The notes beneath the pieces were generated by a model that worked only from the letters and a program-made list of their open reading frames with translations, did no database searches and was not told the DNA's origin. Made by a program: the position numbers and the translations under genes. A stretch of DNA of 38,260 bases, taken from NCBI GenBank assembly GCA_023267735.1, contig JAHFMT010000001.1, positions 1-38,260 on the forward strand. Reading direction: 5' to 3'. Of the stretch, positions 23,632 through 23,820 are shown piece by piece (the first letter of the stretch is position 1; each line of letters starts with the position of its first letter). Source of the DNA: Candidatus Kaiserbacteria bacterium (lineage in GTDB: Bacteria > Patescibacteriota > Minisyncoccia > Phycocordibacterales > Phycocordibacteraceae).

Positions 23632-23820
23632 GCTGGATACAATCTTTCGGGATTGCTTCCAGCAGGACTAGGACGATTATAAGAACGTAAACAGTGTAAA
23701 TCGCCAAGTTACCTTTGTATTGAGTAATTAATACATTGTCCAATCATGGCACGAAGAGACCATACGCCATGCTCCTGAGTAATCAGGATGAAGATATGAT
23801 CCAGGTTCGAGAAATACCTG
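23632..23820 (+). mobile_element. 189-nt group I-like intron at 23S position L1931, lacking P4-P6
   Basis: Interrupts CCTAAGGT^AGCGCAATTCC and ends in G. P2, P3 (CATGGC/GCCATG), P7 (GAGACCA/TGATCC), P8 and J8/7 GAAGATA are visible. Confidence 0.85.

Follow-up and report, generated by a model that had tools for sequence, protein, structure and literature searches.

A conserved family of mini group I-type introns without P4-P6 in the 23S rRNA genes of Patescibacteria

A 189-nt intron in the only 23S rRNA gene detected in a small Patescibacteria (CPR) genome belongs to a conserved family of group I-type introns that have lost the entire P4-P6 domain, a structural element thought to be essential, yet still look built to be spliced out. 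The intron lies in a 38,260-nt stretch of Candidatus Kaiserbacteria DNA (contig JAHFMT010000001.1 of assembly GCA_023267735.1, hereafter the window), and the assembly comprises 561 kb in 32 contigs and is 95.6% complete. We collected 69 distinct homologs (178-231 nt) from Patescibacteria genomes and metagenomes, none with P4-P6, together with three more divergent copies, and found no published description of such introns. The features observed in the preliminary description of this insert were all confirmed at their positions, whereas its interpretation was only partly supported: it was right about the anatomy, too strong in proposing that the splice-site wobble and its receptor were lost together, and its suggestions on mechanism (protein-assisted splicing, complementation in trans, or exon ligation only) remain hypotheses.

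Anatomy of the insert at the L1931 site

The 23S rRNA gene spans 21594-25069 and was the only LSU match in the assembly. Covariance model alignment across 23560-23900 showed a ~192-nt insertion between CCUA and GCGCAAUUCC, which exon consensus places at 189 nt and ending in G. The insert carries the P1/P10 guide, P2, P3, P7, P8, J8/7, P9 and a terminal G, although only 5 nt occupy the place of P4-P6 (Table 1). It folds better than its shuffles, with z = -3.3 alone and -5.1 with flanks (0 of 200 shuffles as good). The Rfam group I model (RF00028, gathering threshold 50 bits) gave no hit on 23560-23900 even at E<=10, the only other hits being chance matches to SNORD38 and mir-1902. The same model detected the second insert of the gene (24483-24774, the L2593 site, 660 nt downstream) at 36.5 bits, a mini-intron in another genome (G180) at 21.7 bits, and a relative that retains P4-P6 (intron L260) at 30.2 bits.

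Defining features of group I introns were only partly present. The P3/P7 pseudoknot with P8 between its strands and a J8/7 strand, the predicted guanosine-binding site (a G-C pair next to a bulged A) with a terminal G, and an internal guide complementary to both exons were found, whereas the P4-P6 domain with its J3/4 and J6/7 junctions and the U.G splice-site wobble were absent. An assembly deletion, a possibility raised beforehand, was ruled out, as the same architecture occurs in independent genomes and metagenome contigs, and a DNA contig of sequencing run X2 spans the whole stretch, intron included, with 27 differences and 9 gaps. A DNA contig of another habitat carries a ~94% similar copy with the intron.

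Table 1. Features of the intron and its exon flanks (window positions, + strand). Pair changes and counts refer to the 69 distinct family members.
Feature	Position	Sequence	Observations
5' exon strand of helix E (H69 loop and 3' strand)	23615-23627	TATAATCGTCCTA	13 nt, 100% complementary to 23669-23681; 96.3% of cells paired; 2 of 13 pairs change on both sides and five on one side
5' exon strand of P1	23628-23631	AGGT	U23631, the last exon base, faces A23711; pairs with ACCT 23711-23714; paired in 69 of 69, TACCT being imposed by the search pattern in 59
Intron	23632-23820		189 nt between CCTAAGGT and AGCGCAATTCC; 191.5 bits with family model R1
Hairpin A	23632-23663		Starts at intron nucleotide 1; minimum free energy fold; 11 of 11 modeled pairs change on both sides
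Helix X, 5' strand	23665-23668	GGAC	Pairs with 23738-23741; 3 of 4 pairs change on both sides; one pair is UA in 35 and CG in 32 sequences
Exon-binding strand of helix E	23669-23681	TAGGACGATTATA	Tracks exon variants (see text)
Conserved linker motif	23687-23694	GTAAACAG	Present in most members, not all
Internal guide	23708-23715	GTTACCTT	Complementary to AAGGT/AGC with one G.U; GTT pairs with the 3' exon (P10), ACCT(T) with the 5' exon (P1); GYTACCT in 69 of 69, the G and the Y lying outside the search pattern
P2 hairpin	23716-23723 with 23728-23735	loop GTAA (23724-23727)	8 of 8 pairs change on both sides; loop GNAA in 69 of 69
Helix X, 3' strand	23738-23741	GTCC	
P3, 5' strand	23745-23750	CATGGC	5 of 6 pairs change on both sides
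J3/7, in place of J3/4, P4-P6 and J6/7	23751-23755	ACGAA	5-8 nt in 69 of 69 (by construction for the 59 pattern-derived copies)
P7, 5' strand	23756-23762	GAGACCA	Bulged A23757; G23758 of the presumed G-binding pair G23758-C23801 (G-C pairs in 69 of 69, pattern-constrained); C23760.A23799 mismatch, found in 7 of 69 and in the P4-P6-bearing copy of genome G507; 98.3% of cells paired; 1 of 6 pairs changes on both sides, most of P7 being fixed by the search patterns
J7/3	23763-23765	TAC	69 of 69, but imposed by the search patterns
P3, 3' strand	23766-23771	GCCATG	
P8 hairpin	23773-23788	TCCTGA-GTAA-TCAGGA	3 of 4 modeled pairs change on both sides; register differs between subclades, so only 69.7% of cells are paired in the fixed register
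J8/7	23789-23796	TGAAGATA	Matches the RF00028 consensus UgAAGAUAUAGUC; AGATAT imposed by the search patterns
P7, 3' strand	23797-23802	TGATCC	
P9 hairpin	23803-23819 (23803-23806 with 23816-23819)	loop contains GAAAT (23811-23815)	3 of 3 pairs change on both sides; loop matches GGAAT, the complement of 3' exon ATTCC, at 5 of 5 bases in 50 of 69 and 4 of 5 in 19 of 69 (about 2.5 of 69 reach 5 of 5 when shuffled); AGGAAU in 49 of 69; 4 of 5 in the window copy
Terminal G (omega G)	23820	G	69 of 69; not part of any search pattern
3' exon	23821-23831	AGC (P10 partner); ATTCC (23827-23831, partner of the P9 loop)	P10 100% paired, the middle pair being C-G in 51 and U-G in 18; G180 has exon variant AAUACC with loop variant GGUAU

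Family members and covariation

A BLAST search of 60 relatives found homologous inserts at the same site in 7 of them (6 of 36 other genomes within the genus), and a genome of the same genus (G014) holds an intron identical to one on a contig labeled Candidatus Nomurabacteria. A core-pattern scan of genome contigs returned at least 120 matches, mostly ordinary group I introns from many phyla and three minis, and a metagenome scan combining TACCT with the core likewise returned at least 120 matches. Together these gave 83 copies with the mini architecture at the same site, of which 69 were distinct (eight from BLAST, two from the core pattern and 59 from the metagenome pattern). In those 59, the motifs TACCT, GAGRCYATACG and AGATATRRTCC and their spacing were imposed by the pattern, and much of the conservation of P1, P7, J7/3 and J8/7 is therefore not independent evidence. 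Three more divergent minis (introns L259, L293 and L299) came from searches that did not use those patterns.

The 69 sequences were aligned with 22 nt of 5' exon and 10 nt of 3' exon, used to build a covariance model (R1, 235 positions), realigned to it, and assessed for pairing in a structure with four bracket types. Overall, 94.3% of 4216 cells were standard pairs, against 78.1% when shuffled (0 of 500 shuffles as high) and 32-46% when the 3' partners were slid by 1-3 columns, and the covariation score was 0.480 against 0.167. The bracketed part of the alignment was fitted to the model, whereas E, P1, P10 and P7 were not in the model.

Several elements were absent from the preliminary description, namely helix E, hairpin A, helix X, the invariant GNAA loop of P2 (L2) and the complementarity of the P9 loop to the 3' exon. 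Helix E pairs the intron with the H69 loop and 3' strand, and intron A-to-G changes are absorbed as G.U, while exon variants are followed by the intron (AUCG/CGAU becomes ACUG/CAGU, ACGG/CUGU or AUUG/CAAU), as also in P4-P6-bearing relatives, where GUUC pairs with GAAC. The 12-bp duplex that ViennaRNA pairs within helix E is worth -15.7 kcal/mol, against -5.5 for the H69 hairpin. In 4 of 69 members another intron interrupts the E target in the DNA, such that the pairing partner exists only after that intron has been spliced and its exons ligated. Helix X encloses the exon-binding strand, the guide and P2, and is followed by P3 after 0-5 nt. By connectivity, E, P1, P2 and X meet in a four-way junction, although E, P1 and X cross in sequence order, implying either a knotted topology or alternative states formed at different stages. 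P8 starts with C-G pairs in most members, which is the usual kind of receptor for a GNAA loop, although docking of L2 on P8 is inferred.

Relatives that retain P4-P6 and the splice-site wobble

Class and phylum searches with R1 and with a pattern on the 5' domain, which did not constrain the region between P3 and P7, found 15 L1931 introns with the same hairpin A, helix X, exon-binding strand and P2 that do contain J3/4-P4-P5-P6-J6/7 (L260-L264, L266, L288, L289, L292, L296 and L300-L304; 242-793 nt). In some of these direct relatives the short P9 is also the same. Alignment with them shows a clean ~70-77-column gap in the minis between homologous P3 and P7 strands, indicating that the minis descend from a lineage of L1931 introns with an enlarged 5' domain, and that the absence of P4-P6 is a conserved family trait. 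In a tree of 71 minis and nine P4-P6-bearing relatives on 201 shared columns (omitting L266, which is incomplete in its locus, and L300-L304, which were found later), the free tree needed two changes of state, whereas the tree with the minis held as one clade was 39 log-likelihood units better (p-AU 0.935). A single loss is not rejected. No compensating element gained only by the minis was found, as the linker motif GUAAACAG and the short P9 also occur in some P4-P6-bearing relatives.

The guide identified in the preliminary description was the right one, given that relatives with P4-P6 carry G at exactly the position of A23711, giving the canonical U.G. Among copies found without constraint at the guide, the base opposite the last exon U was A in all 13 minis, and G in 12 and A in three (L289, L303 and L304) of the 15 P4-P6-bearing relatives. 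For L262, L263 and L292 the guide assignment rests on 2 of 3 P10 pairs. The association is strong, but the sequences are related and the counts are not independent. The proposal that the wobble and its receptor were lost together is too strong, as U-A is not confined to the minis, and U-A therefore looks permissive for, or earlier than, the domain loss. The domain seems to have been lost only where U-A already existed.

Proposed mode of removal

The insert sits in the conserved segment between H69 and H71 of the only 23S match in the assembly, and every helix is under selection, both of which argue that it must be removed. RNA evidence was weak. Of the runs searched, none contained half of the sampled words, and in three groundwater metatranscriptome runs (contigs only) no contig covered 23650-23809. 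Exon contigs identical to the window were present (run X1, 23521-23612; run X6, 23495-23615; 0 differences each), and joints from 23631 to 23821 that skip exactly 189 nt occurred in X1 (two contigs, side 21 nt) and X7 (one contig, side 19 nt). However, these sides are short and lie in conserved exons, cannot be assigned to this organism, and may come from intron-less relatives, and we do not count them as evidence for or against splicing.

We propose, with moderate confidence, that the insert is a working intron, a reduced derivative of L1931 group I introns that is removed from the pre-23S rRNA by ordinary group I chemistry: guanosine attack after U23631, the terminal G23820 in the P7 pocket, and then exon ligation. 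The retained P3/P7 pseudoknot, P8 and J8/7 would be the catalytic core. In this model, P4-P6 and its J4/5 wobble receptor no longer position the substrate helix, and an enlarged 5' domain does so instead, whereby helix E clamps the 5' exon to the intron, E, P1, P2 and X form a four-way junction, X abuts P3, the GNAA loop of P2 probably docks on the G-C-rich P8, and P10 and the P9 loop hold the 3' exon. As the same 5' domain exists in relatives that still have P4-P6, it looks like a pre-adaptation that made the scaffold dispensable. The anatomy, the family, its covariation and its link to P4-P6-bearing relatives rest directly on our analysis, whereas splicing, catalysis, guanosine binding, autonomy and tertiary docking are inferred. 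The occurrence of minis in at least two classes of the phylum is easier to explain if splicing does not depend on a host-specific factor. In model ribozymes, however, both deletion of P4-P6 and replacement of U.G by U-A lower activity strongly, and the window copy has a C.A mismatch in P7, a 4-of-5 match in the P9 loop and a mismatch at the outer end of helix E.

A bolder and more tentative reading is that this is a natural two-domain self-splicing ribozyme, and the smallest natural group I-type intron architecture, in which a long intron-exon helix and a four-way junction take over the positioning role of the P4-P6 scaffold, and the splice site is chosen without the U.G wobble and its receptor. 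In effect, nature would have run the P4-P6 deletion experiment and found a compensating solution that uses the rRNA exon itself as part of the ribozyme.

Of the alternatives, the least improbable, though still unlikely, is that the RNA keeps a group I-like fold but cannot splice on its own, with a host protein or the assembling ribosome supplying the scaffold. The absence of both P4-P6 and the wobble would fit this, as would the extended pairing to H69 and to the start of the 3' exon if splicing were coupled to ribosome assembly, and lichen group I introns lacking about 100 nt fail to self-splice in vitro yet are fully removed in vivo (PMC8527467). However, no candidate factor was identified, the hosts have genomes of 0.5-1.2 Mb, a spread over at least two classes with patchiness within a genus is harder to reconcile with a dedicated host factor, and the complete G-site, terminal G, J8/7 and P10 are conserved. 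Supply of P4-P6 in trans by another group I intron of the same cell, such as the L2593 intron, is very unlikely. Nine of 10 mini-bearing genomes tested have at least one RF00028 hit at E<=0.01, often in the same 23S gene, so help in trans cannot be excluded for them, but G037 (100% complete, in 4 contigs) has the mini and no RF00028 hit, which argues against an obligatory donated domain, albeit from a single genome. Moreover, the co-resident introns are of different types and sit at different sites, and nothing in the minis suggests a docking site for a foreign P4-P6. A pattern search for a free-standing P4-like element in genomes G000, G037, G293, G180 and G288, whose allowed gap was too short for the P5 of the intended positive control (G288) and so did not match it, gave a single hit, in G293, that was matched by the reversed-pattern control as well, and this search carries no weight for or against a donor.

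Excision without ligation, leaving the 23S rRNA in two pieces as for intervening sequences removed by RNase III, is also very unlikely. RNA contigs gave no cover inside the intron, and short unclassified inserts in CPR 23S genes have been suggested to be such sequences (PMC11270868), but the site (CCUAAGGU/AGCG) is a conserved single-stranded core segment rather than a helix tip, and the two ends of the insert do not pair into a long stem, the 5' end forming its own hairpin and the 3' end closing P9. Furthermore, the guide is complementary to the ligated junction, conservation of the terminal G and G-site only makes sense for ligation, and descent from true group I introns is clear. Least likely is a decaying remnant that stays in the rRNA or marks a dead gene. 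Loss of a core domain, U-A at the splice site and the C.A mismatch could suggest decay, yet compensatory changes occur in every helix across 69 sequences, which means selection on the fold, the insert sits in the only 23S match of the assembly, and the C.A mismatch is shared by otherwise diverged members and by a P4-P6-bearing relative.

Comparison with known systems and implications

Canonical L1931 group I introns of bacterial and organellar 23S rRNA (Thermotoga, Simkania, Synechococcus; PMC1995217), and those found here (e.g., L084, L265 and L267), share the insertion site, a nearly identical 3' core (AGAGRCYAUACG ... AAGAUAURGUCC), the P3/P7 pseudoknot, P8, J8/7 and terminal G, but have P4-P6 and a short guide GCCUUAG that gives U.G, lack hairpin A, helix X and the 13-nt exon-binding strand, and many carry a LAGLIDADG gene. 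An engineered td intron with P4-P6 deleted, a core reduced to the P3-P9 domain plus substrate helix, reportedly keeps some, weak activity under special conditions, whereas the present family is natural, conserved and has an elaborate exon-binding domain. The degenerate introns of lichen-fungal nuclear rDNA are also natural, shortened and removed in vivo, but are eukaryotic and reported as unable to self-splice and dependent on unknown host machinery (PMC8527467). The engineered td deletion and these lichen introns are the nearest precedents. The GIR1 lariat-capping ribozyme is small (179 nt) and group I-related with a rearranged core, but keeps a P4-P6 domain, catalyzes branching rather than splicing, and is not an intron of its own (PMC2219692). 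RNase III-processed intervening sequences are likewise short inserts without an ORF in 23S genes that Rfam intron models do not detect (PMC11270868), but sit at helix tips, form a long terminal stem, have no guide, G-site or terminal G, and are not followed by ligation.

In a survey of CPR 23S inserts, 45% were classed as group I by Rfam, while the rest, mostly short, were left uncharacterized or suspected to be RNase III-type sequences, and position 1931 was named as a LAGLIDADG site (PMC11270868). Neither this nor the other work examined (PMC9297842, PMC1995217, PMC2219692, PMC11417360, PMC8527467) describes a natural group I intron without P4-P6, although our search left out most subscription journals and supplements and so does not prove absence. 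P4-P6 is the textbook folding scaffold of group I ribozymes, and the U.G wobble is their nearly universal splice-site mark. A conserved, covarying family that lacks both, in an essential position of a single-copy 23S gene and with close relatives that still have the domain, gives a ready-made comparison for asking what P4-P6 is really needed for, how a substrate helix can be positioned without it, and how small a self-splicing intron can become. A class of short unclassified inserts in CPR rRNA genes thus escapes the Rfam intron model, which the covariance model built here would find, and the tight pairing to H69 hints at coupling between splicing and late 50S assembly.

Distribution

In a 401-genome sample of the class, 11 genomes have the 5' domain pattern at this site, three of which carry minis, and G180 adds a fourth mini from the class search with R1, which the pattern itself missed. 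Of the 67 genomes matching R1 in that search, about 50 match only the 32 nt of uninterrupted exon junction and have no intron there. A mini of 189 nt also occurs in another class of the phylum (genome G480, 172 bits).

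Other features of the rRNA genes

Besides the mini-intron, the same 23S gene carries a second intron, at the L2593 site, which is 292 nt long, ends in G and has a normal P4-P6. The Rfam group I intron model RF00028 scored it at 36.5 bits (E = 6.7e-8), which is below the gathering score. A long inverted repeat around its 5' splice site (GGGTTCAAACCGTTGAGC / GCTCAACCCGTTTGAACCCC) also suggests extended exon pairing. Domain I of the 23S was further found to contain a 54-nt insertion relative to the Rfam model, which is probably an expansion or an intervening sequence at a helix tip. 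The rRNA genes themselves are unlinked and in an unusual order: 23S-5S comes first, while the 16S lies about 8 kb downstream on the same strand and is followed by a tRNA.

Coordinates of additional features of the rRNA genes and of pairings within the mini-intron
Feature	Position in the window
Second 23S intron (L2593 site)	24483-24774
Insertion in domain I of the 23S	about 21815-21868
Unlinked rRNA genes	21594-25273 and 33262-35060
5' strand of hairpin A, and J8/7 plus the P7 3' strand	23633-23646 and 23791-23804
Linker AAATCG, and CGATT of the exon-binding strand	23699-23704 and 23674-23678

Possible alternative pairings and variation among related introns

Two further possible pairings were noted within the mini-intron. 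The 5' strand of hairpin A is 79% complementary (over 14 nt) to J8/7 plus the P7 3' strand, which could reflect an alternative, inactive pairing in this subclade, or chance; hairpin A differs in most other members of the family. In addition, when the intron was folded alone, the linker AAATCG paired with CGATT of the exon-binding strand. The linker imitates the exon there, so the exon-binding strand may be masked until the exon is available.

We also noted variation around and within the related introns. In four mini-intron copies (L007, L165, L170 and L249), the 23S gene carries a further intron of about 400-800 nt inside H69, only 8-14 nt upstream of the mini-intron, implying an order of splicing. 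Two of these copies, L007 and L165, also share an extra base in the exon-binding strand. Among the P4-P6-bearing relatives, five of 637-793 nt (L261, L262, L292, L296 and L303) hold long inserts upstream of P7, which are presumably homing-endonuclease genes. In the 3' exon, the 23S of both the mini-intron L259 (genome G180) and the P4-P6-bearing relative L303 (genome G582) has AAUACC instead of the usual AAUUCC just after the insertion site, and in both cases the P9 loop has the matching GGUAU. Lastly, one mini subclade (L133 and about 30 related metagenome copies) has an extra small hairpin with a GAGA loop in the linker between the exon-binding strand and the guide. The stem of this hairpin covaries (GUU/GAC, UCU/AGA, CCC/GGG, CUCC/GGAG), and it may be a further tetraloop contact.
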